From: an uncultured bacterium
GTDB taxonomy: Bacteria; CAIJMQ01
DNA length: 16,057 bases
Reading direction: 5' to 3'
Assembly: GCA_964573245.1 (NCBI GenBank)
Contig: CAZNJA010000031.1
Coordinates: forward strand, 1 to 16,057
Part shown: one piece after another, positions 746 to 15,877 of the stretch
Position numbering within the stretch: position 1 is the stretch's first letter
How the letters are laid out: each line of letters begins with the position of its first letter
The notes under the pieces: model-generated
The model's database searches: none
Told to the model about the DNA's origin: nothing
The model's input: the letters and a program-made list of their open reading frames with translations, nothing else
Translations under genes and position numbers: made by a program

Positions 746-822
746 TGTAGTGAGCGAGCTTGCTCGGGAAAGATAACGGCAAAGCAAGCTTTGCCCGCTT
801 CGCAGCGAGGCGAGCCACTACA
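746..822. repeat. GTAG-type REP doublet (REPIN) 3, with the right REP interrupted by a 21-bp hairpin
   Basis: tGTAGtgagcgagcttgctcg ... ggcaaagcaagctttgcc[cgcttcgcagcgaggcgagcc]aCTACa. Same family as REPIN 1. It abuts the hisS stop codon. Confidence 0.75.
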
Positions 823-3126: not shown

Positions 3127-6100
3127 TTATTTTGCCGTTTGAGAAACGGGTTTATCAGAGGATTCGGCAACCGCCGCATCTGCAGAAGGTTCGGATTTAT
3201 TTGTTTTTTTTGCGTCTTTTTTGCCCGAAGTAAATTTCACGGACACCACCCTGGAAACCCCTGGTTCCTCCATCGTTATGCCATATAAGACTTCCGAGAT
3301 GGATAATGTATTCTTGTTGTGGGAAATTATTATAAACTGCGTGTTATTTGCTAAATCTTTCAAAAAATTCGTGAATCTGCCGATGTTAGTATCATCCAAG
3401 GGCGCATCTATTTCGTCGAGGATGCAAAACGGAGAAGGTTTTACTTTAAAAAGCGCAAAAAGCAAAGCGATTGAAGTTAATGCTCTTTCCCCTCCCGACA
3501 TCAAACTAATGGAGGAGAGTTTTTTGCCGGGGGGTGAGACAATAATGTCCACTCCCGCTTCCAGAACGTCCTGCGAGCCCACGAGTTTCAAATCAGCTTC
3601 GCCGCCTTGGAAAAGGTTTATAAAGACGCTTCTGAACTCTTTGTTCACTTTGTTGAGGGTATCTCTAAATAAACTGCGAGCGGTGGAATTTATTTGGTTT
3701 ATAGTATCTCGCAGGGATTGCTCCGAGTCCAGCAAATCTTTCTGTTGAGATAAGTAAAAGTTATATCTTTCGTTAAGTTCTTCTTCCTCTTCTATTGCGG
3801 CAAGATTTACGTTTCCCATGCTTGTAAGTTTATCTTTTGAATCTTCTATTCTTTCTTTTATATGCTCTTGGACCGTTTCGGTTTCGGGAGGAGTGAAATT
3901 ATCCAGCGATACCGCGTAGTTGGAAAAAATATTTTCTTTTAAATCTTTGATTCCCGTTTCAATTTTGGTTTTTTCTATTTCTAACGACTGTAAAGCGTTT
4001 TTTCTGTTTTCCAGTTCGGAACTTTTTTCTCTTATGAAAGTCTCTTTATCTTTACTTTGTTCGCCTGTAATGACCCTTTTATCTTTCAGCTCTTCCAAGT
4101 TCTGTTTCAGGGATTCTATTTGTTGTTTTTGTTCTATGAGTTTGGTACTGCTTTCTTCCGTGTCCTTTTTTAAAGACTCTATTTTCTTGTTAACCTCTTC
4201 GGCTTCAGCGCTCAAGTTCGGAATTTCTTCCCGCAACACTTCTTTCTTATCCTGCAAATCTTTAAGAGCCCCTTCCGCGTTTTGGCGGGACTGTTTCAGG
4301 GTAAATAGTTTTATTCTCTTTTCCTCATAAATTTCTTTTGTTTTTTTCTCTTCTTCGTCCAGAGACTCAAAAGTTCCTTTTATAGAGCTTATCTGCGAAC
4401 TATGTTCGCTTATCTTTATCTGCATCCTTTCCAGTTCTTCTTCCAACTGTTTATGTTTCTCTTCTGCTTTTTGTCTTTCCTGCTCAAGATTTTTTTGCTC
4501 GTCTAACAAAAACTTATCTCTTTTCCCCAACTCGTTTAGTTTTTCCGAAATAGAACCGCTCTCTTTTTCTAAATCCGCTATGTTCCCGTTTCTACCTGCC
4601 AGAATTTTCCCTTCTTCCTGCAAATCCTGCTGTATTTTTCGCAGTTTGCCCAGTTCTTTGGTTTTTTCTTTTTCTACTGCCTTTAACTTTTCCTCGATAG
4701 AACCTACATCTTTTTGCATCTTATTTATTCTTTCTTTTCTACCGAGTAAAGCGCGCATCTGGTTTCTGGAACCACCCTGTATGAACCCGCCCGGATGCAA
4801 TAGGTCCCCGTCGCGGGTTACTATCTTGTAATCTTCGGACAAAGAATAATATAACCTCATCGCCTCTTCCCAATCCTTGGCGATGACAACTTTGTCGAGA
4901 AGATAATTGAATATGCCTTCAAACTCCTGCGGGAATTTTACCTTGTCTATCGCGAATTCATATTTTGAGTTGACGACAGCCCTGGTTCTTTTTATATTCT
5001 CAACGGGAAAGAAAGTGGCTCTTCCTCTCTCTTTTTCTTTCAATAATTTTATAAGTCTGGCAGCCGCATCGTTGTCTTTTACTATCAGACCATGGATGTT
5101 ATCCATCAACGCTATCTCGATAGCTTTTTGCAGTTCTTCCGGCGCCTGCAGAGTGTTGAACACCAAACCGTAAGCATGCGATTTCTCTTCGGAGTCCATG
5201 ATAAATTTGACGGAACTTTGCACTCCTTCTTCTTTGGAATGCATTTCCATCAGCGCGTCAAGATGCGTCCTTTTCATATGCAAAGAGGATTTAACCGCAA
5301 GCAGGTTATCTTCAACGCTTCTTAACGCTTCTTCTATTTTAACTGCGTTTTTTTCGAGGAGTTTAATTTGAGCTTCTGTTTCTTTAGCTTCTTTTTTTCT
5401 GTTTTCCAGTTCTCGTTTTTTAGAATCAAGTTCATTTTGCAAAGAAAGTTTCCGGGAAGACATGCCTTCTTTTTCGTCGGATAGTTTCTTCAATGCCACT
5501 TCAAGATTATGGATGTTCGCCTTCGAATTCTCCAAAGCATTTTTGAGGCGTGCTCGTTCGGATAATAACTCTATCAACTGTGAATTTTTGTCTTCGAGTT
5601 GTTGTTCGTTTGTTTTTTCGGTATCGGATAATTCGGAGATTTTTTTGAAGATTTCCTGTGTTTGTGCGCTTAACTCCTCTTCTTCTTTTTGCGCGTCTTT
5701 CAAAGTCTTCGTATGCGTTTCTATCCGTCGTGAAACATTAGCAAGTTCTTCGTCCAATTTTCTTTTCTCAACGCTCTCTTCCTGCAATTTAGCGGTTAAA
5801 TTTTTGATTCTCTCCTCATTGACGACAATTGTGGAATTGCCTCTTTCTATTTCTGACAATAAACGCAGTTGTTCTTCCCTTTTCTCTTCCAACTCCGTTT
5901 CGATTTTTCCCAATTCTTTCTGCAAATTTTTAAAAGTATCCTCTTCCTTTTTGAAAACGACGTCTATACCACTTTTTTCTTTGCTGGAGTTTTCTATAGC
6001 CGAATCTACTTTGCCTTTTTCTTTCTGAAAAGTTTTATATTGATAAAAAGCGTCCGTCACCTGAAGATTTTGTAATTCTTCTTTTATGCCCTGATAACGT

Positions 6101-6768
6101 TTGGCTTTGAAAGCCTGCCTTTTCAGCGCATTGCCCTGACGTTCCAGTTCGGCGATTATGTCCTGAATTCGCAGTAAATTTTGTTTGGTGAGTTCCAACT
6201 TGTGCAAAGCTTCGTTTTTCCGTTTGCTGTATTTCGTTATACCTGCGGCTTCTTCGAAAATATGTCTTCGCTCTTCGGGCTTGGAATTGAGAATCATGTC
6301 CACTTGGTCCTGGCTTATGACCGAATAAGCGTTTACGCCAAGCCCCGTGTCCATAAAGACTTCTAATATATCTTTCAAACGGCAGGGCGCCTTATTGATA
6401 AAATATTCGCTTTCGCCCGAGCGGAAAACTCTTCTGGTAATGGTAATTTCCGAAAACGTGAGTTCAACGCCGTTGCTGCCGCTTAAAGAAGGAGGAGCGT
6501 AATGACTGGGATTGGAGAATGTCAACGAGACTTCAGCCATGCCGAGCGGCTTGCGTGTTTGGCTACCGTTAAAGATAAGCTGTTCAGTTTGTCCCGCGCG
6601 CAGGGAATGGATGCTTTGTTCGCCCAAAGTCCAGCGAATTGCATCGACTACATTGCTTTTCCCGCAACCGTTGGGGCCGACTATCGCGGTAACGCCCGGT
6701 TCGAACTGAAATTTAGTTTCGTCGGGGAACGATTTAAAACCAAAAATTTTTAAACTTTTAAGTTCCAT
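3127..6768 (-). CDS. smc: Chromosome segregation protein SMC
   Basis: N-terminal GFKSF and Walker A GPNGCGKSN; two long coiled coils around a hinge (GRATF, GGFIQGG); signature MSGGE; Walker B/D-loop ILDEIDAPLD; 1213 aa. Confidence 0.98.
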   Translation of the reverse strand: MELKSLKIFGFKSFPDETKFQFEPGVTAIVGPNGCGKSNVVDAIRWTLGEQSIHSLRAGQTEQLIFNGSQTRKPLGMAEVSLTFSNPSHYAPPSLSGSNGVELTFSEITITRRVFRSGESEYFINKAPCRLKDILEVFMDTGLGVNAYSVISQDQVDMILNSKPEERRHIFEEAAGITKYSKRKNEALHKLELTKQNLLRIQDIIAELERQGNALKRQAFKAKRYQGIKEELQNLQVTDAFYQYKTFQKEKGKVDSAIENSSKEKSGIDVVFKKEEDTFKNLQKELGKIETELEEKREEQLRLLSEIERGNSTIVVNEERIKNLTAKLQEESVEKRKLDEELANVSRRIETHTKTLKDAQKEEEELSAQTQEIFKKISELSDTEKTNEQQLEDKNSQLIELLSERARLKNALENSKANIHNLEVALKKLSDEKEGMSSRKLSLQNELDSKKRELENRKKEAKETEAQIKLLEKNAVKIEEALRSVEDNLLAVKSSLHMKRTHLDALMEMHSKEEGVQSSVKFIMDSEEKSHAYGLVFNTLQAPEELQKAIEIALMDNIHGLIVKDNDAAARLIKLLKEKERGRATFFPVENIKRTRAVVNSKYEFAIDKVKFPQEFEGIFNYLLDKVVIAKDWEEAMRLYYSLSEDYKIVTRDGDLLHPGGFIQGGSRNQMRALLGRKERINKMQKDVGSIEEKLKAVEKEKTKELGKLRKIQQDLQEEGKILAGRNGNIADLEKESGSISEKLNELGKRDKFLLDEQKNLEQERQKAEEKHKQLEEELERMQIKISEHSSQISSIKGTFESLDEEEKKTKEIYEEKRIKLFTLKQSRQNAEGALKDLQDKKEVLREEIPNLSAEAEEVNKKIESLKKDTEESSTKLIEQKQQIESLKQNLEELKDKRVITGEQSKDKETFIREKSSELENRKNALQSLEIEKTKIETGIKDLKENIFSNYAVSLDNFTPPETETVQEHIKERIEDSKDKLTSMGNVNLAAIEEEEELNERYNFYLSQQKDLLDSEQSLRDTINQINSTARSLFRDTLNKVNKEFRSVFINLFQGGEADLKLVGSQDVLEAGVDIIVSPPGKKLSSISLMSGGERALTSIALLFALFKVKPSPFCILDEIDAPLDDTNIGRFTNFLKDLANNTQFIIISHNKNTLSISEVLYGITMEEPGVSRVVSVKFTSGKKDAKKTNKSEPSADAAVAESSDKPVSQTAK
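6475..6504. repeat. Probable degenerate in-frame insertion in the smc head (about 10 aa, HYAPPSLSGS)
   Basis: The loop between EVSLTF and SEITITRR is 21 aa, against about 11 aa that I recall for bacterial SMCs. It shares TTACGCTCC with the start of the aspS insert. The palindrome is weak. Confidence 0.45.
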
Positions 6769-6782
6769 TTTTTACTTTATAA

Positions 6783-6810
6783 GTTCCGACGCTCCTTTGG
6801 AAGTCGGAAC
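6783..6810. repeat. Intergenic palindrome gttccgac-N12-gtcggaac
   Basis: Perfect 8-bp stem whose arms resemble the insert at 13786-13809 (gttcccgac...gtcggga). Confidence 0.7.
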
Positions 6811-6872
6811 AAAAAAGCTTTTGGTTTATTTTATCAAAGATATGAGGAAAATACTATGACATGGGGAAAAAC

Positions 6873-6901
6873 ATTACAACATATACTACCCATTGCGCCA
6901 A
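6873..6901 (-). promoter_or_regulatory. Possible sigma70 promoter for smc-ftsY-hisS-aspS
   Basis: TTGGCG-N17-TGTAAT on the minus strand, about 105 bp upstream of smc. Pattern match only. Confidence 0.3.
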
Positions 6902-6911
6902 AGAATATTTT

Positions 6912-6959
6912 ACCCGCGCACCAGCCCGCCAAAGATACAATGGCAGGACGGTGCGGGGT
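6912..6959. repeat. Composite palindrome: outer arms enclosing a 27-bp miniature-element copy
   Basis: Outer arms acccgcgcacc and ggtgcggggt. The inner segment 6923-6949 reads GTCCTGCCATTGTATCTTTGGCGGGCT on the minus strand, similar to CTTGCCCGCATTATCTTTAGTGGCGGG at 14643-14669. Confidence 0.65.
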
Positions 6960-6980
6960 TTCGCTCCACGGGAAAAACCC

Positions 6981-7013
6981 AAAAGCAAAGACACCACGGC
7001 TGTAAGGCCGTGG
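6981..7013 (-). terminator. Possible intrinsic terminator of the GH115/TRAP operon (alternatively an IS200/IS605-like end hairpin)
   Basis: Minus strand, just after the TGA: ccacggc-cttaca-gccgtgg followed by tgtctttgctttt. Confidence 0.45.
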
Positions 7014-7017
7014 AGCT

Positions 7018-9996
7018 TCATTTTTGACAGAAACTTTCGGGAGGGCCTAAATAACTCAGGTCTACATCACCTGTTTCAATTACAATTTTCTGCAAAACTA
7101 TGCCCGGGTCAACGAACCAGAATTTCAGGACATGTTCACCCGGCTCTTTGATTTTATGGTTCGAAACCGCTATTTTAATACTATCACTTACCATCTGACT
7201 CCACCACCAAGCATATTTCCAGTCAGGCACGGTATTGTTTTCGTGAATGTTGATAATTTGAGGCAGTTCGTCATCAAACGAAATCCCGTAACGCAGTCCC
7301 TGTGTTTTGTTAAAATTTTGAACAGGTGACATATACGCATTAACTTTTACTTCACCGTTAGTAAAAAAATTAATAGTGTATTCCAGTCGTGAGCTATCGC
7401 CCTGCGGTGTTTGACTTTTTGCCGTCACCGGGACAGGAGTCACGCCTGAAAGTGTTCGACCTAAATCCGGAATCGTGAGCCATTCAACCGGCTCGGCATT
7501 GACCGTATGGGTATAATGTTCAGCCTCGATGGAAACATAACCGTTGCTCTCAACGAAACCCTTTAAAGAATTTCTTGTCGGTGTTCCGGGATTGAATGCA
7601 TTGACTTTAACGCTCACTTCTTTTCCGTCAGGGCCGGTAATAACAACAGAACCGCTCTTATTGCCCATAGGCACACTGCCCCATTCGGCACTAACCAAAA
7701 TGCGCAACTCCTTGTCAACCGTGCCTTGTGTTTTGCTCAGCTTAATCCAGGGTTCGCTCGATTTCGCCTTGAATTCAAACGGTTCTTGTCCACGATTAAA
7801 CACCTCGATGTACTTATCCTTCCGGTCGAAAACGTTCATCTCCGGCAGAACCGGCTGCTTTGAAGCACCGGGCCAAACCTGCTGCGAACCTTCAATCGCC
7901 ACACCCATATCCGCAGTACTGGGAACTTCGATATTGTTGACTTCGGGCATATTATTTTTGGGGGGAGGATTCCAGGATGTAAAGCCAATATGCGTTGCAC
8001 CCATTATATGGTTCCATTTCCCGTCTGCAAGTTTGTGATAATGTTCGGTGATTTCAGAATCTTTCGCAAATAACTCTATGACTTTCTGCGCCAAATCATT
8101 AGTCGCAGCGCGTCCCTGTTTTGCATAGAGGTGGTTCTTTCCAAGGGTCACATAAAGTTCATTTAGATTGGCACATGCCGAAACGGGATGCAGCACAAGC
8201 TGAAAAAAGGCGTCCTTGTATTCGGCAGGAAGAGCTTTATTAATCTGCTCTGCCTGTTCCAAGAGTTTATTGTAATCGGCCACAACTGTTTCTGCCTCGC
8301 GGTAATTTACCAAACTGTAGGTGTCAGGCTCCAACATAGCGGGTTTGCGGCGGCCGTTATATTTTGTGTATTTGGTGAGGATGTCTGCGATATCTGCAGC
8401 ATACTTCGAGCCAAACTGCTGCTGAGCCCACAATCGTGTATATTCCGGCAGACGTTCAGCAGGCCATTCGTCGGGATTCAATGCATAATCCAGAAAGAAA
8501 GAGATTGGAAACTCCATCGGTTTAAGGTCGCCGACGTTCACAATCCAGATTTTATCTGCTCCGTAACGATAAGCCAGATGCATCTGCTCCCATGTTTTTT
8601 GTATGGGGCTGGTATTGAGCCATTCGTATGAGCGGGGTCCGCCATGGAAATCGTAATGATAATATATACCATAGCCGCCAGACCGGGGCGGGTCACCCGG
8701 CTTGGGAAGCATTCGGATATTTCCCCAGTTGTCGTCGCACAATAACAAAGTAACATCATCAGGCACACGCATACCCTTATCATAATATTCCTGCACCTCT
8801 TTATATAAAGCCCATACCTGCGGGATAGTTGCTACATCCTTGCCGGTAACATCGCCGATAATTTTACGCTGGTCGACCACGATTTTTTCAAGCAGTGATA
8901 TATTCGTATCTTCGCTCATACCGATATCACCGTCGCCGCGCATAGCAAGGGTGATTATGTTCTCGTAATCTTTGTTGCGTTCGATACCCTTAGTCCAGAA
9001 CTCGCGAAGGACCTCTTCGTTTTTAGAATAATCCCACGGGCCTTCTCCATATCGTTTCCATTCTCTATGTGCCCTAATCATCGGTTCATGATGAGAAGTG
9101 CTCATTACAATTCCATATTCATCGGCAAGCTTCGGGTTGAGGGGGTCGTCGTCGCTAAATGCACTGCTCCACATCGCAGGCCAAAGGAAGTTGCCCTTTA
9201 ACCGAAGCAGGAGTTCAAAAACCTTGACATAGAATTCATGGTTGAAGCCCCCGAATTTTTCCACGACCCAGCCACCTAATGACGGCCATTCATCGTTTAG
9301 AAAGATGCCGCGATATTTAACAGCCGGCGGTCCCTGAACATATCTTCCGGCCTTTATGTAAAGATTGTCCTCATGCTCTACCGGCACATCCGCCCACCAG
9401 TACCAGGGTGATACCCCAATCTGCTCGGAAAGGTCGTAGATGCCGTAAATTGTCCCCCGTTTATCACTGCCGGCAATAACAAGAGCATTCTTAACTCCAG
9501 GCAATGGGTTCGGAACAACCTGAATGAGAAACGATTCCCATTTTCCCGCAATTTGCTCCACGTTAATTTTGCCGTTACGGATCAATTTATCAATTATCCG
9601 GTTTTTTCCTATCGTGCCTATGATTACGACATTTTTCCTAAGTTTGTTTTTTCTCCGTATAATTAGAGGAGTACGGCCTGTTACACGATGTATATCCGAC
9701 TGCAGGTTTCGGACAGCGCGGGTAACACCGGGATAGTCGCCTGAACCAACATAAATAACTGCAAGGTAATTCCTCTTTACAAGTTGAAAACTTCCTTCAC
9801 TATAAACGGTATCTACATAATGTTGACTGTCAATAGACAAAATTTCACGTTGCTCCTCGCACTGCGCGCAAGAAGAAAGAGTTAAAATAGAAATGCAAAA
9901 TAAAATTATTAGGTTAATTTTATTGGAACTTGCTAACTGCATGTGCTTCCCGAATAGTTTAGAAAGATACATCTGAATGAATGTGTTTCCTATCAT
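7018..9996 (-). CDS. Glycoside hydrolase family 115 (alpha-(4-O-methyl)-glucuronidase-like), exported, possibly a lipoprotein
   Basis: YRGIFLNDE, WPAMW, SHHEPM, MRGDGD, ALYKEVQ, DDNWGNIR, GGYGIYYH, IVNVGDLKP and C-terminal SYLGPPES. A hydrophobic signal region ends LSSC. The start is 9996 (ATGA overlap with dctM) or 9942. Confidence 0.93.
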   Translation of the reverse strand: MIGNTFIQMYLSKLFGKHMQLASSNKINLIILFCISILTLSSCAQCEEQREILSIDSQHYVDTVYSEGSFQLVKRNYLAVIYVGSGDYPGVTRAVRNLQSDIHRVTGRTPLIIRRKNKLRKNVVIIGTIGKNRIIDKLIRNGKINVEQIAGKWESFLIQVVPNPLPGVKNALVIAGSDKRGTIYGIYDLSEQIGVSPWYWWADVPVEHEDNLYIKAGRYVQGPPAVKYRGIFLNDEWPSLGGWVVEKFGGFNHEFYVKVFELLLRLKGNFLWPAMWSSAFSDDDPLNPKLADEYGIVMSTSHHEPMIRAHREWKRYGEGPWDYSKNEEVLREFWTKGIERNKDYENIITLAMRGDGDIGMSEDTNISLLEKIVVDQRKIIGDVTGKDVATIPQVWALYKEVQEYYDKGMRVPDDVTLLLCDDNWGNIRMLPKPGDPPRSGGYGIYYHYDFHGGPRSYEWLNTSPIQKTWEQMHLAYRYGADKIWIVNVGDLKPMEFPISFFLDYALNPDEWPAERLPEYTRLWAQQQFGSKYAADIADILTKYTKYNGRRKPAMLEPDTYSLVNYREAETVVADYNKLLEQAEQINKALPAEYKDAFFQLVLHPVSACANLNELYVTLGKNHLYAKQGRAATNDLAQKVIELFAKDSEITEHYHKLADGKWNHIMGATHIGFTSWNPPPKNNMPEVNNIEVPSTADMGVAIEGSQQVWPGASKQPVLPEMNVFDRKDKYIEVFNRGQEPFEFKAKSSEPWIKLSKTQGTVDKELRILVSAEWGSVPMGNKSGSVVITGPDGKEVSVKVNAFNPGTPTRNSLKGFVESNGYVSIEAEHYTHTVNAEPVEWLTIPDLGRTLSGVTPVPVTAKSQTPQGDSSRLEYTINFFTNGEVKVNAYMSPVQNFNKTQGLRYGISFDDELPQIINIHENNTVPDWKYAWWWSQMVSDSIKIAVSNHKIKEPGEHVLKFWFVDPGIVLQKIVIETGDVDLSYLGPPESFCQK

Positions 9997-11294
9997 TTAA
10001 CAAGCCCAAATTTTGCCGGAAGCCACATTGATATTTCCGGGACAAAAGTGCAAATTAAAAGTGTAATTATCATGGAAATAAAAAACGGCACAATATAACG
10101 AATCACTTTAGTTACTGTTGTGTTAGCTATACCGCAACCCAAGAAAAGACATGTCCCCACCGGCGGAGTGCACAGCCCTATGCATAAATTCATAATCATA
10201 ATTATGCCGAAATGCAGCGGATGCACGCCTAATCTCACGACAATCGGCAAAAAGATAGGAGTGAATATAAGAATGGCAGGAGTCATATCCATAAATGTTC
10301 CGACTATAAGTAAAATAGCATTAATCATAAGCAAAATGAGAATTTTATTATTTGTAAGGCTCAACAGGCTTGCGCTTATATTTTGAGGGACACTCTGCGA
10401 TGCCAAAACCCATGACATTGCCATGCTTGTTCCTATGAGCAAAAATACAACCGATGTGGTAACGCCGCATTGCAGGAGAATTTTAGGCAAATCTTTTATT
10501 TTTACTTCACGGTACACAATCACAGCTAATAATAACGAGTAGAGAACCGCAACCGCCGAAGCCTCCGTCGGGGTAAACCACCCCATAAGTATTCCGCCTA
10601 TTACGATAAATATCAACAACAGAGGAGGAATTGCATGGAGAAAACATAAAAATCCTTCCTTGAAATTAAAGGTTTCTCCTTTACCGTAATTATTTCTGAC
10701 CGATATCACACCGCTTACAACCATCAATCCAAGCCCCATCAAAATACCCGGAAGATACCCTGCCAAAAACATCGCTGCAATAGAAACCACGCCTCCTGTT
10801 GCAAGAGAATAGACAATCATGATGTTGCTGGGCGGGATTAATAATCCTGTTGTCGCGGCGGTTATTGTTACGGAAGCATTGAAATCCCTGTGATAGCCCA
10901 TCTTGTTCATCAGCGGCACCATAAATCCGCCCACCGCGGATATAGCAGCTCCCGCAGAACCGGATATTGCTCCGAAAAACATACATGTCAAAACATTTAC
11001 AAAAGCCAAACCGCCCCGAAAGCGCCCGACCAAAACATTTGCAAAAGCAATAAGTCGCCGTGCAATGCCGCCATGCCCCATCAACAGTCCCGACAAAATA
11101 AAAAATGGTATAGCCAAAAGCGAAAAACTGTCTATGCCCGTGGCTATATTGTGAGCCACGGTAACAAACGCAGGCAATCCGCCTATAGCCAATATCGCCA
11201 AAACAGTTGAAATGCCTATACAGAATGCCACAGGCACATTCAAAAGAACCAATACAATAAAACTTACTACCAACACCAATATGGGAAATTCCAT
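9993..11294 (-). CDS. dctM: TRAP transporter large permease
   Basis: 433-aa polytopic membrane protein with LLAIPFFIL, FGAISGS, IPPSNIMI, FTPTEA, GVHPLHFG and CTPPVG. Confidence 0.96.
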   Translation of the reverse strand: MEFPILVLVVSFIVLVLLNVPVAFCIGISTVLAILAIGGLPAFVTVAHNIATGIDSFSLLAIPFFILSGLLMGHGGIARRLIAFANVLVGRFRGGLAFVNVLTCMFFGAISGSAGAAISAVGGFMVPLMNKMGYHRDFNASVTITAATTGLLIPPSNIMIVYSLATGGVVSIAAMFLAGYLPGILMGLGLMVVSGVISVRNNYGKGETFNFKEGFLCFLHAIPPLLLIFIVIGGILMGWFTPTEASAVAVLYSLLLAVIVYREVKIKDLPKILLQCGVTTSVVFLLIGTSMAMSWVLASQSVPQNISASLLSLTNNKILILLMINAILLIVGTFMDMTPAILIFTPIFLPIVVRLGVHPLHFGIIMIMNLCIGLCTPPVGTCLFLGCGIANTTVTKVIRYIVPFFISMIITLLICTFVPEISMWLPAKFGLVK

Positions 11295-11334
11295 TAGGAC
11301 ATCCTCTTAAATTTTAATTTTTCAACCTTTTCTA

Positions 11335-11868
11335 TTAATCAATACATTTTTCTACGTGCGGAGATTGTTGTTGTGGAATGGGTTCATTTTTAAGCAGCGC
11401 TACTATCCTTTCAACCAATCCTATCACGGCATAGAGGACCAAAAAGAAACCGCTGATCGGTACTGCAAAATATACATACCCCATCTTGATTCCCAAAGCA
11501 GGCGAAACTTGCCCCAATCTTAATGTGTTTATAACAAGCTCGATACCGCCGAAAACCATAACGGTCAATGAAAACATTGATACGCAAAAAAAAGCAAAAA
11601 TTTCTGTATAAATCCTTTTCTTTGCAGAGAGCTTGCCTACAAAATAATCAATGCCAAGATGTGAGCCGCGATTCAACGCTACAGCCGCGCCTAGAAGAGA
11701 AATCCAGATAAGCATAAAGACAGCCAATTCTTCCGTCCATTTGCTCGGGTTCTTAAGAATAAACCGGGTAAATACCTGCCACAATACATCCAACACCAAC
11801 ACCGCCGCGACTGCCGTAACCAAGAATTCAAGCGAACGGTCTAATATCTTTTTTATTAATCTAAACAC
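11335..11868 (-). CDS. dctQ: TRAP transporter small permease
   Basis: Four hydrophobic segments; QVFTRF, WTEELA, HLGID and SPALGI motifs; GTG start preceded by AGGAGG. Confidence 0.94.
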   Translation of the reverse strand: MFRLIKKILDRSLEFLVTAVAAVLVLDVLWQVFTRFILKNPSKWTEELAVFMLIWISLLGAAVALNRGSHLGIDYFVGKLSAKKRIYTEIFAFFCVSMFSLTVMVFGGIELVINTLRLGQVSPALGIKMGYVYFAVPISGFFLVLYAVIGLVERIVALLKNEPIPQQQSPHVEKCID

Positions 11869-11871
11869 TTA

Positions 11872-12861
11872 TTACTTTACCTCCTGCACATCATTAATTA
11901 ACTCACCGATTTCAGTTCCTTTGAATTCAGCCCACATACTTTTAACCGATTCCTGAAATGGGGCCTTGTCCGGGTATGTTACTTTTACTCCTCCAGACTG
12001 CACCTTTTTTAAATCTGCTTCTTCGGCTTCAGCCCAAATCTTGCGTTGATATACTACGGATTCGTCAACAGCTTCCTGAAGTATTTGCTGAAACTCGGGC
12101 TTAAGATTATTCCATACTTGCGCGCTTATCATCAGGATATCAGGCAGTCTCGCGTGTTCATCTAAGGAATAAAATTTACACACTTCGTAATGTCTTGAAG
12201 TGCTGTATGAAGGCGGATTATTTTCCGCCGCGTCAACAACACCCTGTTCAAGCCCGGTATAAAGTTCGCCCCACGGCATAGGCGTGGGCGAACCTCCCAT
12301 TGCTTCGATCATTTTCATAGACATGGCACTATTCATAACTCTGACTTTCATTCCTTTCAAGTCTGCGGGAGTACTTATTTCTTTCTTTGCATAAAAACTT
12401 CTTGCTCCTGCATCATAGTAGCACAAACCTCTCAAACCCTGGTCCTGTCCCGCGAGAAGCAATTCCTTGCCTATGGGGCCATTCAAAACCTTCCAGTAAT
12501 GTTCGGAATTCCTGAAAAGATAAGGGATCCCAAATATTTTCATGCGAGGCACAAATCCTTCCATAACCGCTGTTGAAGTTTTTGTCATTGCAAGATATCC
12601 AAGTTGCAGAGATTCTATATTTTCTTTTTCCGTACCTAACTGTTCTCCCGGAAATATTTGGATTTCCATACGTCCATCGGATTTGTCTTTGGCTTTATCC
12701 GCCATATAAACCATTGCTTTATGCACGGGATGGGTTACGTCCAAACTATGGGCTAATTTCAACGATACTTCCGGCTTGCCAGCGCCTTTCTTGCCGCAAC
12801 CGGAAGACATTATTAAAACAGGCAACAAAAAACAAAACGATAATACGATTAACTTTTTCAT
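11872..12861 (-). CDS. dctP: TRAP substrate-binding protein, DctP family, probably a lipoprotein, probably uronate-binding
   Basis: LKLAH, QLGTE, DLKGMKVRVM (conserved carboxylate-binding Arg) and ELYTGLEQGVVDAAEN. The signal peptide ends SSGC. The substrate is inferred from the flanking GH115 genes. Confidence 0.94.
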   Translation of the reverse strand: MKKLIVLSFCFLLPVLIMSSGCGKKGAGKPEVSLKLAHSLDVTHPVHKAMVYMADKAKDKSDGRMEIQIFPGEQLGTEKENIESLQLGYLAMTKTSTAVMEGFVPRMKIFGIPYLFRNSEHYWKVLNGPIGKELLLAGQDQGLRGLCYYDAGARSFYAKKEISTPADLKGMKVRVMNSAMSMKMIEAMGGSPTPMPWGELYTGLEQGVVDAAENNPPSYSTSRHYEVCKFYSLDEHARLPDILMISAQVWNNLKPEFQQILQEAVDESVVYQRKIWAEAEEADLKKVQSGGVKVTYPDKAPFQESVKSMWAEFKGTEIGELINDVQEVK

Positions 12862-12870
12862 TTTACTTTT

Positions 12871-12878
12871 ACCTCCTT
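12871..12878 (-). promoter_or_regulatory. Shine-Dalgarno site of dctP
   Basis: AAGGAGGT, 9 nt upstream of the ATG. Confidence 0.8.
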
Positions 12879-12888
12879 TTTTTGTTTA

Positions 12889-12918
12889 ATACTACTATCT
12901 TAATTATAATACTGTCGA
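12889..12918 (-). promoter_or_regulatory. Possible internal promoter for dctPQM
   Basis: TCGACA-N18-TAGTAT in an AT-rich 91-bp spacer; weak match. Confidence 0.2.
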
Positions 12919-12952
12919 TAAATCATAATCTTTAGTTATTTAGTTTTGATTT

Positions 12953-15877
12953 TTATGCCTGATGAAAACTTTCAGGCGGACCTAAATAACTTGGCTTGTA
13001 GTAGCCTGTTTCTATTACTATTTTCTGCAGCACAACGCCCGAATCCACGAACCAGAATTTTAAGGTATGTTGTCCGGGGTTTGCTATTTTATGTTCGGAA
13101 ACTTTTATTATGATGTTCTCGCTTACCCATTTTTCCCATGCCTGCAGTGTCGTATCTTCATGAATGTTAATAATTTGAGGTTGTTCGTCATCAAAAGAAA
13201 TCGCGTATCTTAAACTTGTATTGTGGAAGTTTAATGTAGGAGAAAGATAAACGTTAACTTTGACCTTATCGCTGTTAAACAGATGGACTTTGTATTCAAG
13301 ACGCGGGCTATTGTCTTTTGGGAGTTCGCTCTTTGCTGTTACCGGAAAAGTCGTTATCGCTGATGATGTTCTGCCTAAATCGGGTATGATTTTCCATTTT
13401 ACTAATTCGCTGCCTATTGCTTTTGTGTAGTTTTCGGCTTCAATAGAAACGTATCCGTTACTTTCGACAAAACCTTTAACCTGCTCGCGTTTAGGAGATG
13501 TAGGATTATTGATAACGGCATAAATTACAGCTTTGTTTTTATTTGGACCCGTTATGGTTATCGGAGTTTTTTGTTTACCGGTCGGCGCTTTCTGCCAATC
13601 GACACTTACGAAGACACGTTGTTCTTTATCAACACTCCCTTCTTTTGGATTTATCTTCAACCAAGGCGTTTCTGATGTTACTTTATAATCAAAAGCATTT
13701 TGTCCGCGGTTAAAAATTTCAATATAAAATGTCTGCTGTTGGTATATATCGAATTCGGGCAGAATAGCTTCGCTCTTTTCCCTTGTCCCGACAGAATCGT
13801 CGGGAACGAGCCACCATTTGTCCGAATCTTCAACCATGATACCCATATCCGCTCCGTCCGAAATTTTAATCTCTTCGACTTCAGGCATAACACTCTTCGG
13901 GGGTTGCTGCCAATATGTGTATCCAATATGAATTTGGTCCATCATGTGGTTCCATTTTTCGCCAGATACAACTTTATTGTAATAGTTTGAAAGCTCACTG
14001 TCTTTGGCAAAAAGTTTTTTGGCTTTTTCCGCCAATTCATTCGTTAAAATCCTCCCCTGTTTTGCATACATTCGGTTCTTCGCAACGGTAAAGTAAAGTT
14101 CGTTTAAATTTGCGCACGCTTTTACGGGATAAAGCACAAGCTGATAATATGCGTCTTTGTATTCGGTAGGAATTGATTCATAAATCTTTTCTGCCTTTTC
14201 TGAAAGTCTATTGTAATCGGATACAACTTTTTCAGCTTCACGGTAATGAATTAAACTGTAAGTATCGGGTGCCAATAATTCTGGTTTTCTCCGAGCGTTG
14301 TATTTGGTGTATTTTGAAATAATGTCTGCAATATCTTCAGCATATTTTTCGCCGAACTGTTCTTGTGCCCAAAGTTTTGTGTATTCCTGCAGACTTTCCA
14401 CGGGAATTTGGTCGGGGTCCCACGCGAAATCCAAAAAGAACTGAATCGGAAATTCGAGCGGTTTGATATCGCCGACATTCACAATCCAAAGGTCTTTGAC
14501 TCCATACTTATAAGCCAGATTCATCTGCTCCCAAGTTCTTGATATCGGGCTTGTGTTTAGCCACTTGTAGTTTCGTGGACCGCCGACATAATCAAAATGA
14601 TAATAGATACCGTAACCGCCTTTTCTGGGTTTGTCCGCCACTCCCGCCACTAAAGATAATGCGGGCAAGGCTACTTCGGCGGATAGGTCATCTAATTTAG
14701 GCAGTTTTCGTATATTGCCCCAGTTATCGTCGCACAAAAGTAACATAATATCTTCGGGAACACGCATACCTTTGTCGTAATACTCCTGCACTTCTTTATA
14801 TAAAGCCCACATCTGCGGCGTTTCTTCAGCTTTCTTACCCGTCACTTCTTCGAGTATTTTCCGTTGGCCATTAATTATTCTTTCCAATAAATCAATCGCA
14901 GTCCCCTCGGCCATAGGCTCGTCGCCATCTCCGCGCATTCCCACAGTTACAACACTCTCATTAGAATTCATCCTTTCTATACCTTCCCTCCAAAATTTCC
15001 TTAATGTTTCTTTATTCGTTTCGTAATTCCACGCGCCCGAGCCGTAACGCCGCCATTCGTCGTGGGCACGCATCATCGGTTCGTGATGAGAAGTGCCGAT
15101 TACGATTCCGTATTCATTCGCAAGCTTTGGACTCTCCGGGTCATCATCATAAAAAGCCCTGCCCCACATTGCTGGCCAGAGATAATTGCCTTTTAAACGC
15201 AGTATAAGTTCAAACACATGTTCGTATACGTTATGATTGAAACCGCCGAACTTTTCGATGGTCCAGCCGGAAAAAGCGGGCGCTTCATCATTGATAAAAA
15301 TGCCCCTGTATTTTATTTTTGGTTCTTCCTGTATGTATTTACCGGGCAATACGAAAATTTCAGAATGTTTTTTTACCGGCACATCAGCCCACCAATATAG
15401 CGGCGAAACGCCTATTTGCGCGGAAATATCAAACATTCCGAATATCGTACCGCGTCTATCGCTGCCGGCAATAACAAGCGCGCGTTCTACATTTGGAAAA
15501 GGTTTTTCAACCACCTGAATAAGAAACACTTCCCATTTCCCTTTAATACCCGAAACGTCAATCTTCTTTTCCTGCACCAACTTATCAATAAGCGGACTTT
15601 TACCGAGCGTTCCGATTAAAACGATCCCGCCACTAAAAATTGGCGAGGCAAGTTCTTTGGCGGTGGGAATTTTATCTATAGAAAGTGTCGGCTCTACATT
15701 TGTTACATTTCTAATATCGATTTGGAAAAGTTTTGCAATACGCAGCACACCCGCATAATCCTTTGAACTAACACACAACGGCGCGGATTTGCCCGAAGAA
15801 GAAAGGAGAAAAGCACCTCGCCCAGCAGAATTTGGCGGGCAGGCTTCTTGTTTTTTAAAAGAAATATATTGCATCAT
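12953..15877 (-). CDS. Glycoside hydrolase family 115 (alpha-glucuronidase-like), no signal peptide, with four palindromic in-frame insertion sites
   Basis: YRGIFINDE, WPAMW, SHHEPM, MRGDGD, ALYKEVQ, YYHFDYVGGPRNYKWLN, RRKPELL, HIGYTYWQQP and SYLGPPES. Confidence 0.94.
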   Translation of the reverse strand: MMQYISFKKQEACPPNSAGRGAFLLSSSGKSAPLCVSSKDYAGVLRIAKLFQIDIRNVTNVEPTLSIDKIPTAKELASPIFSGGIVLIGTLGKSPLIDKLVQEKKIDVSGIKGKWEVFLIQVVEKPFPNVERALVIAGSDRRGTIFGMFDISAQIGVSPLYWWADVPVKKHSEIFVLPGKYIQEEPKIKYRGIFINDEAPAFSGWTIEKFGGFNHNVYEHVFELILRLKGNYLWPAMWGRAFYDDDPESPKLANEYGIVIGTSHHEPMMRAHDEWRRYGSGAWNYETNKETLRKFWREGIERMNSNESVVTVGMRGDGDEPMAEGTAIDLLERIINGQRKILEEVTGKKAEETPQMWALYKEVQEYYDKGMRVPEDIMLLLCDDNWGNIRKLPKLDDLSAEVALPALSLVAGVADKPRKGGYGIYYHFDYVGGPRNYKWLNTSPISRTWEQMNLAYKYGVKDLWIVNVGDIKPLEFPIQFFLDFAWDPDQIPVESLQEYTKLWAQEQFGEKYAEDIADIISKYTKYNARRKPELLAPDTYSLIHYREAEKVVSDYNRLSEKAEKIYESIPTEYKDAYYQLVLYPVKACANLNELYFTVAKNRMYAKQGRILTNELAEKAKKLFAKDSELSNYYNKVVSGEKWNHMMDQIHIGYTYWQQPPKSVMPEVEEIKISDGADMGIMVEDSDKWWLVPDDSVGTREKSEAILPEFDIYQQQTFYIEIFNRGQNAFDYKVTSETPWLKINPKEGSVDKEQRVFVSVDWQKAPTGKQKTPITITGPNKNKAVIYAVINNPTSPKREQVKGFVESNGYVSIEAENYTKAIGSELVKWKIIPDLGRTSSAITTFPVTAKSELPKDNSPRLEYKVHLFNSDKVKVNVYLSPTLNFHNTSLRYAISFDDEQPQIINIHEDTTLQAWEKWVSENIIIKVSEHKIANPGQHTLKFWFVDSGVVLQKIVIETGYYKPSYLGPPESFHQA
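13786..13809. repeat. 24-bp palindromic in-frame insertion splitting a Pro codon
   Basis: Perfect stem tcccgac-N6-gtcggga. Removal converts WWLVPDDSVGTREKSEAILPE to WWPREKSEAILPE, colinear with VWPGASKQPVLPE in the paralogue. Confidence 0.85.
14633..14686. repeat. 54-bp nested in-frame insertion (27-bp element inside a 27-bp element)
   Basis: Encodes LSAEVALPALSLVAGVAD. Removal gives LPKLDDKPRKGG against LPKPGDPPRSGG in the paralogue. Outer arms are tccgcc/ggcgga; the inner element is 14643-14669. Confidence 0.88.
15626..15652. repeat. 27-bp palindromic in-frame insertion (LASPIFSGG)
   Basis: Coding strand CTTGCCTCGCCAATTTTTAGTGGCGGG. Removal restores gap-free alignment with the paralogue. 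Confidence 0.85.
15818..15844. repeat. 27-bp imperfect palindromic in-frame insertion (ACPPNSAGR)
   Basis: Coding strand GCCTGCCCGCCAAATTCTGCTGGGCGA. Removal gives YISFKKQEGAF against YVDTVYSEGSF in the paralogue. Confidence 0.8.

Follow-up and report, generated by a model that had tools for sequence, protein, structure and literature searches.

Why should a catalytic domain whose loop is otherwise of strictly fixed length carry eighteen extra residues, and from where did these residues come? The question is raised by contig CAZNJA010000031.1 of assembly GCA_964573245.1, which derives from an uncultured bacterium of the lineage CAIJMQ01; the whole stretch of 16,057 nucleotides (nt) that was analysed is called the window here. 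Its minus strand encodes a glycoside hydrolase of family GH115, and inside the catalytic domain 54 nt of nested palindromic sequence are read in frame. The first-pass annotation had taken this string for an element inside an element, grown by two successive frame-preserving insertions within the gene. Our reading, to which we give a probability of about 0.65, is that the 54 nt are selfish repeated DNA and not an evolved part of the enzyme; they probably arrived by a single insertion of a ready-made composite, which is favoured over two steps in situ. The argument depends on the following features.

12953..15877, minus strand: host gene, GH115 family glycoside hydrolase of the xylan alpha-glucuronidase type (open reading frame (ORF), Pfam and PDB match).
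14633..14686, minus strand: 54-nt nested composite repeat, in frame, encoding L398-D415 (sequence, codons and homolog alignment).
14643..14669, minus strand: inner 27-nt unit with tag CTTG, arm CCCGC(A), loop and 3′ arm AGTGGCGGG (nhmmer and tagged pattern).
14670..14687, minus strand: 5′ part of the outer unit with tag CCTA, arm TCCGCC and 8-nt loop (alignment with the outer parts of composites C27, C14 and L204).
14634..14642, minus strand: 3′ arm of the outer unit, AGTGGCGGA (this 9-nt arm stands right after the inner unit in nine of nine composites).

The host ORF runs uninterrupted over 974 amino acids and is intact. Its Pfam GH115 domain covers residues 183-534 (E 1.5e-152), GH115_C is matched at E 7e-62 and the best match among solved structures is PDB 4zmh_A (E 1.2e-277). 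All invariant motifs of the family are kept in the alignments, which places the protein in GH115 at the level of sequence. The nested string was returned letter for letter, with its arms, GAC and AAA, when the minus strand of 14560-14760 was read, and its reported location between the motifs DDNWGNIR (residues 383-390) and GGYGIYYH (420-427) of the GH115 domain was confirmed. In the direction of the gene, GAC (14689-14687) is followed by 17 nt of the outer unit (14686-14670), the inner 27 nt (14669-14643), the last 10 nt of the outer unit (14642-14633) and AAA (14632-14630). The arms seen are TCCGCC/GGCGGA in the outer and CCCGC/GCGGG in the inner unit. The flanking C/GAC leaves the boundaries uncertain by 1-3 nt, and a parse of 18+27+9 nt (14687-14634) suits the repeat family better than one of 17+27+10; the GAC repeat flanking the insert may be due to chance.

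The 54 nt are a precise insertion in an intact gene. From the invariant P393 to G420 there are 8 residues in 119 of 120 homologs and 26 in the window protein alone. The insertion preserves the frame and consists of 27 nt lodged within 27 nt, as had been noted. The 18 codons are absent from 13 of 13 aligned relatives, among them the paralog at window 7018-9996 and six sequences of ~80% identity, and each of the three best solved GH115 chains shows an 18-residue gap at the site. When the insert was deleted in silico, the loop resembled that of relative P0005 in the 14-sequence alignment. The relatives from a scan of genome contigs (≤67% identity in the best segment) were too distant for a comparison of alleles, and a metagenome scan for GH115 relatives gave one useful locus, L103. 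The GH115 of this locus is 76% identical and its insert site is empty at the DNA level, yet the locus has the repeat family. Contigs assembled from four public runs were also inspected, with the caveat that contigs drop rare variants: those of X1 and X2 span the 54 nt with 0 differences, and those of X3 and X4 do not span the insert. In a third-run contig, 93 nt around the insert are replaced by 39 other letters (54 fewer); this is a diverged GH115 whose loop has its usual length.

The origin of the 54 nt was sought in the window's own genome (G000; 1.46 Mb in 110 contigs, here given C-numbers, 38% G+C, 93% complete). A search with 121 nt around the site hit three other places, the best being C27:10277-10331, to which the 54 nt are 87% identical over 55 nt (E 3.2e-13), and an nhmmer profile of 17 further copies picked up the inner unit at E 2.4e-4. 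The unit of the family is 27 nt long and consists of a 4-nt tag CCTG/CTTG followed by two arms, one of 6 nt (CCCGCC) and one of 9 nt (AGTGGCGGG or a variant of it), with 8 loop bases between them; its core is a 23-nt hairpin, CCCGCC-N11-GGCGGG. As the unit is too short for profile searching, which gave only 23 copies at E <0.05, copies were counted by patterns, with the reversed genome as control. The strict core pattern matched 36 intervals, of which 31 measure 23 nt; the control gave 1. The tagged, relaxed pattern (one mismatch per arm) gave 61 against 2, with 27 nt as the length of 41 of the 61 and ~4 of the 61 judged by eye to be chance matches. A stricter pattern matched 15 times in G000, 4, 16 and 6 times in the three same-genus genomes searched and not at all in the single further genus of the taxonomic family. 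Of the 36 remaining genomes searched, 35 gave 0-1 matches, and G007, of the same class, gave 7 that belong to a different repeat family.

Stop-free frames of at least 200 amino acids hold 17 of the 36 strict and 25 of the 61 tagged copies (41-47%), compared with 2419 of 3000 random 23-nt intervals (81%). Put differently, 19 of the 36 strict copies lie outside such frames against 19% of random intervals: the family prefers spacers, though nearly half of its copies are intragenic. The 25 copies in long frames are oriented 12 sense and 13 antisense and, depending on frame and strand, encode differing peptides, e.g., PATDTMAG, LARRSFGGG and LPAKCSVAG. The composite on C27 is located in a 131-bp spacer. 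Both orientations, varied peptides and a spacer copy therefore point to a DNA element rather than to an RNA signal or a protein module. Intron- or intein-like removal of the insert was considered and set aside, as strand bias is absent and lengths of 27 nt dominate in genes (20 of 25).

The GH115 gene itself carries two further copies.

15626..15652, minus strand: solo 27-nt unit, in frame, encoding L76-G84 (LASPIFSGG) (nhmmer E 1.8e-3 and codons).
15817..15843, minus strand: decayed 27-nt unit near the N-terminus, A12-R20 (tagged pattern and 14-sequence alignment).

Around residues 76-84 the protein is 9 residues longer than 104 of 120 homologs, a length unmatched in any other homolog, and L103 has no insert here in its DNA. 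Relatives P0004, P0006 and P0007 likewise have a filled site at residues 12-20. A search for solo copies, as had been proposed, was thus answered: there are many of the inner type, one of them in this very gene, and three hairpins with the outer TCCGCC...GGCGGA arms, at C11:9672, C17:5489 and C23:18981.

The nested arrangement is not peculiar to the GH115 site. The same layout, namely 18 nt (tag, arm, loop), a complete 27-nt unit and a 9-nt arm AGTGGCGG(A/G), was found nine times: on C14, C27, C31 (the GH115 site) and C43, and at five fetched loci of the congener G002. Eight of the nine measure exactly 54 nt. Both units of a composite share one orientation and the inner unit always sits directly 5′ of the 3′ arm of the outer unit, with letters that vary between copies in either unit. 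The GH115 copy belongs to a subtype, common to C27, C14 and the G002 locus L204, with TCCGCC/GGCGGA outer arms, a CTTG inner tag and similar loops. Other nested architectures occur on C11, C59, C64 and C70, and units are placed also in the loops of unrelated palindromes, e.g., on C2, C17, C24, C42 and C77. Insertion into hairpin loops, those of its own copies included, is a habit of the family, which gives a hint of a single-strand, structure-guided mechanism.

Did the nesting take place within the GH115 gene? In that history the outer 27-nt unit entered GH115 first and the inner one later entered its loop. It would draw on the self-nesting at a fixed point just 5′ of AGTGGCGG, which is repeated with different inner and outer sequences and accompanied by the other architectures, on the solo units that do enter genes, GH115 among them, and on the solo hairpins with TCCGCC/GGCGGA arms. 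Against it, no 27-nt-only allele, that is, no 9-residue intermediate, was seen among the 119 homologs or in the contigs of the four runs. A look for relatives with 0, 27 or 54 bp at this site had been proposed; 0 was found in the 119 homologs and 54 in the window gene. Furthermore, ready-made composites exist at C27, C14, C43 and the five G002 loci, the analogous C43-type composite is all or nothing in five genomes, and the GH115 composite is nearest to that of C27 in its inner and outer part alike. Closeness to C27 in both parts and the lack of half-filled alleles therefore favour insertion as one unit. The claim of two successive insertions in this gene is left unsupported, and we regard such a history as unlikely, though it fares best among the alternatives to a single insertion of the composite.

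Comparison of filled and empty sites among relatives suggests, from the sequences, that the family moves or has moved recently. In the C43-type ORF the 54-nt composite is present in G000 and G002, and G001, G003 and G004 have empty sites that read GAC-AAA, GAC-AAG or GAT-AAG across the junction; the difference between a filled and an empty allele is exactly 54 nt, ambiguous by ≤1 nt. A 27-nt unit in the DNA ligase gene (LigA; orthologs compared as L175-L177) is present in G000 and G001, where it belongs to different subfamilies, and its site is empty in G004 and G007. The different subfamilies suggest either a hot spot or turnover in place. The unit in IleS was found in G000 only, the site being empty in the others. 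GAC on the 5′ side and AAA on the 3′ side flank three of the four G000 composites (the GH115 site, the C43-type ORF and the C27 spacer); there may be a target preference for GAC/AAA, for which the number of sites is small and the G002 copies are not all alike. Terminal inverted repeats with a target-site duplication, the mark of MITEs (transposable elements of the miniature inverted-repeat type), were not found, the arms being the hairpin itself. It was also observed that the composite at G000:C43:8609-8662 is identical to that on G002:C15 (L171, L179) at 51 of 54 positions and the 39 flanking coding bases at 30 of 39; recent spread, gene conversion or constraint could each account for the high identity of the composite. 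Another observation concerns the DNA ligase at G000:C22:10270-12429 (L169), which has besides its 27-nt unit an extra 19-residue insert (PASPSSHPASPAKRGEQGG) that is absent in G001, G004 and G007.

The following course of events would connect these observations. The 27-nt units that the genus owns, each a tag plus a hairpin, are scattered over spacers and genes in either orientation and also lodge in the loops of other hairpins, including those of their own copies. One nested pair (18+27+9 = 54 nt) would have spread as a unit, and a copy of this pair would have entered the strictly 8-residue GH115 loop between its Asp and Lys codons. The copying might take place as single-stranded DNA with an IS200/RAYT-type HUH tyrosine transposase acting in trans; the identity of this enzyme is a tentative guess, which we would sooner doubt than assert. 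RAYT-like ORFs with an HUH motif and a Tyr are present at the two fetched loci of G002 (out of its four Y1_Tnp matches), and G003 has a classical IS200-type gene. Somewhat less likely still is the boldest version, in which a nine-codon element of 27 nt, still active, copies itself into single-stranded hairpin loops, its own included, and into coding DNA, with a host transposase that the searches run did not recognize; it would be among the smallest mobile DNA known outside cyanobacteria and, if real, would steadily supply the essential proteins of a streamlined genome with new loops of 9 and 18 residues.

What the insert does to the enzyme was approached by modelling, as had been suggested. 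AlphaFold2 with a 120-sequence alignment gave a mean predicted local distance difference test score (pLDDT) of 88.9 and a predicted template modelling score of 0.90. The pLDDT is <50 for residues 400-413 and for residues 15-18 and averages 72 in the block 71-80, and these are the three repeat-encoded stretches; the 18-residue loop is hence predicted to be disordered. The strand 378-383, at whose end stands the DD motif, precedes the insert, and the strand 422-427 follows it at a distance of 4 residues. Strands of a (beta/alpha)8 barrel are entered on the face opposite the catalytic face. Judging from topology and secondary structure, the loop would thus lie on the non-catalytic face. We take the insert for a tolerated passenger, presumably neutral for the enzyme. 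Survival of the gene would come down to a length of 18 codons, to the use of a reading frame without a stop, and to a site in a connecting loop just before a beta-strand, where 18 extra residues could dangle disordered.

Could the loop instead be adaptive, serving contact with the substrate, an oligomer contact or regulation, with its likeness to repeats a secondary matter? The frame is preserved, the gene is intact, and the C43-type composite is better kept between G000 and G002 than its flanks (51/54 against 30/39). However, spacers and unrelated genes hold the same kind of DNA, in either orientation and in several frames that give different peptides, the loop is predicted to be disordered, and it is absent in all 119 other homologs, the ~80% identical ones included. 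We consider an adaptive loop very improbable. What had been called a route to new protein sequence survives in a weak sense only: the codons are in frame, and the peptide that they add is predicted to be without order. The least credible possibility, that the insert or the entire contig is foreign to the organism through an assembly or binning artefact, could appeal to the failure to find GH115 in the eight closest genomes searched (three same-genus, one same-family, four same-class) and to nearest named homologs of the Ignavibacteria/Bacteroidota type with ≤67% identity in the best-matching segment (scan of genome contigs), but it has to contend with the X1 and X2 contigs that span the insert with 0 differences, with SMC, FtsY and HisS on the same contig, and with four to five copies on that contig of a family also present on the genome's other contigs and in congeners.

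Several points weigh against selfish DNA copied as a composite by a transposase. Different inner and outer pairs meet at one common junction; nesting thus recurs, which keeps a two-step history alive. Folded as single-stranded DNA into nested stems, the GH115 composite reaches −11.6 kcal/mol with a z of −2.1, a modest gain over shuffled sequences, 7 of 200 of which fold equally well; the C27 composite reaches −15.8 kcal/mol with a z of −4.7. No intact HUH transposase was found in G000, from whose 93% complete, 110-contig assembly the gene could be missing. The sole Y1_Tnp match of G000 scores 32.7 bits and has its HUH histidines replaced, and the TnpB-type domain PF07282 has 0 matches in the same genome. 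No family copies stand beside the two fetched RAYT-like loci of G002 (two of four matches). The tag of the family is neither GTAG nor CGTC. The placement of the loop relative to the active site is a reading of secondary structure, and that the enzyme works and that the insert is translated are presumptions.

How does the family compare with small repeats already known? According to Di Nocera, De Gregorio and Rocco (2013, PMC3733652), repetitive extragenic palindromes (REPs) tagged GTAG or CGTC occur in tens to hundreds of copies, mostly intergenic and some wholly within genes. The intragenic ones keep to the reading frame, often in pairs that encode 20-30 residues, with DNA ligase and tRNA synthetases among the targets, and RAYT and REPtron are described as well (PMC3733652). 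The present family resembles intragenic REPs in its short tag and stem-loop (23-nt core, 6-bp arms, 4-nt tag), in its many dispersed copies, in its in-frame residence and in hitting a DNA ligase and a tRNA synthetase too. It differs in the tag, CCTG/CTTG here instead of the REP tetranucleotides, in the fixed 27-nt unit and in the 41-47% of copies that lie in long open frames. Moreover, its pairs are nested in one orientation, whereas REPs form head-to-head or tail-to-tail dimers with a spacer; inverted doublets of this kind were not seen in the composite, the comparison being confined to it and a genome-wide survey of such doublets not having been made. No REPtron, that is, a RAYT flanked by repeats, was found in the incomplete assembly of G000 or at the two G002 loci of four matches. 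BIME and REPIN doublets are inverted REP-like pairs that flank their RAYT and are mobilised by it. Like REPINs, the composite consists of two REP-like hairpins that spread as a unit, and RAYT-like genes exist in the congener G002; unlike in REPINs, the arrangement is nested and direct, and two RAYT-like genes of G002 are unflanked by family copies.

Another precedent is provided by the Rickettsia palindromic elements (RPEs), palindromic selfish DNA of ~150 bp found in frame in unrelated working genes, as described in a review of MITEs (PMC10969869). The likeness lies in the in-frame entry into unrelated functional genes (here GH115, LigA, IleS, the C43-type ORF and others), in the small genomes and in an added peptide tolerated by the fold. 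RPEs differ in measuring ~100-150 bp with a conserved peptide, against 27 or 54 nt here, in several frames and on both strands, with a peptide that is not conserved. In unit size (mode 27 nt, 41 of 61) and self-nesting the family comes nearest to the small dispersed repeats SDR1-SDR8 of Nostoc-type cyanobacteria, compared here by description only. These were reportedly described by Elhai et al. in 2008 as repeats of 21-27 nt with hairpin potential, nested in one another at precise positions. They differ in their host: the IleS relatives listed for the window's genome carry non-cyanobacterial labels. We know of no frequent in-frame residence in genes for these repeats. Small palindromic repeats in frame in genes are thus a known phenomenon, and what stands out here is the fixed nine-codon unit and its stereotyped self-nesting.

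The case carries some wider meaning. Tiny palindromic repeats can lengthen a strictly length-conserved loop in a catalytic domain with the frame unbroken, and in a little-known lineage of small genomes nearly half of the copies are in genes, housekeeping ones included. The filled and empty alleles of the congeners form a natural series in which to study the tolerance of proteins for random loop insertions and the way in which 27-nt DNA moves, and the fixed length of nine codons together with the fixed nesting point offers handles toward the responsible enzyme. For annotation, such inserts account for odd extra loops of 9 or 18 residues in the proteins of these genomes.

The surroundings of the gene bear on its history. 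The contig encodes SMC, FtsY, HisS, another aminoacyl-tRNA synthetase, a GH115 paralog (7018-9996), the TRAP transporter DctPQM and the insert-bearing GH115. Across 7018-15877 the transporter is flanked by the two GH115 paralogs, which are 59% identical, with SMC, FtsY and HisS adjoining. Outside the eight closest genomes the sole other GH115 match was a weak one in G026. The GH115 cassette was probably acquired by transfer, and it is plausible that it was then colonised by the repeats of its host. IleS of the window's genome is ≤62% identical to the named proteins among the matches listed, which carry Caldiserica, Calescamantes and Omnitrophica labels and no cyanobacterial one. Rfam, run over the full window with gathering thresholds, gave 0 matches. 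One more family-like copy is present in the window.

790..814, plus strand: 25-nt copy resembling the family, in the spacer that separates two aminoacyl-tRNA synthetase genes (tagged pattern and flanking ORFs).

Some minor observations on the repeats may be added. Other short repeats are plentiful in G000, with ACCCCGTTAGAGAT-type words occurring ~41 times and the palindrome CCGACGTTACGTCG 15 times, and some 27-nt units are placed in the loops of larger palindromes of the ACCCCGTTAGAGAT/CCGACGTTACGTCG type. The ORF with the Y1_Tnp match, G000:C12:23856-25166 (L168 1429-2739), encodes 436 amino acids with an N-terminal IS200/RAYT-like domain and a membrane-like middle, and it bears an in-frame repeat unit of its own (NLPATVSMAG). 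The C14 composite (G000:C14:12681-12754; L004 1458-1570) is preceded by another hairpin repeat and lies in the D-loop of a tRNA-Val-like 5′ fragment that received no ARAGORN call and adjoins a tRNA-Cys/Leu/Val cluster; a second fragment downstream is broken by a CCGACGTAACGTCGG repeat, and the arrangement in G002 (L204) is orthologous.

Among the GH115 relatives, P0008 has an independent 9-residue insert (LARQRFSGG) at another site, in its C-terminal half, that resembles the family unit, and P0004 has ~18 extra N-terminal residues that resemble the composite in reverse orientation. The L103 contig, with the closest GH115 fetched (5342-8122), holds in addition short stretches like the GH115 N-terminus at 2776-2934 and 4001-4093. 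One of these stretches and the GH115 itself bear a repeat unit after a shared ...FKK motif, in the orientation opposite to that of the window's N-terminal unit.

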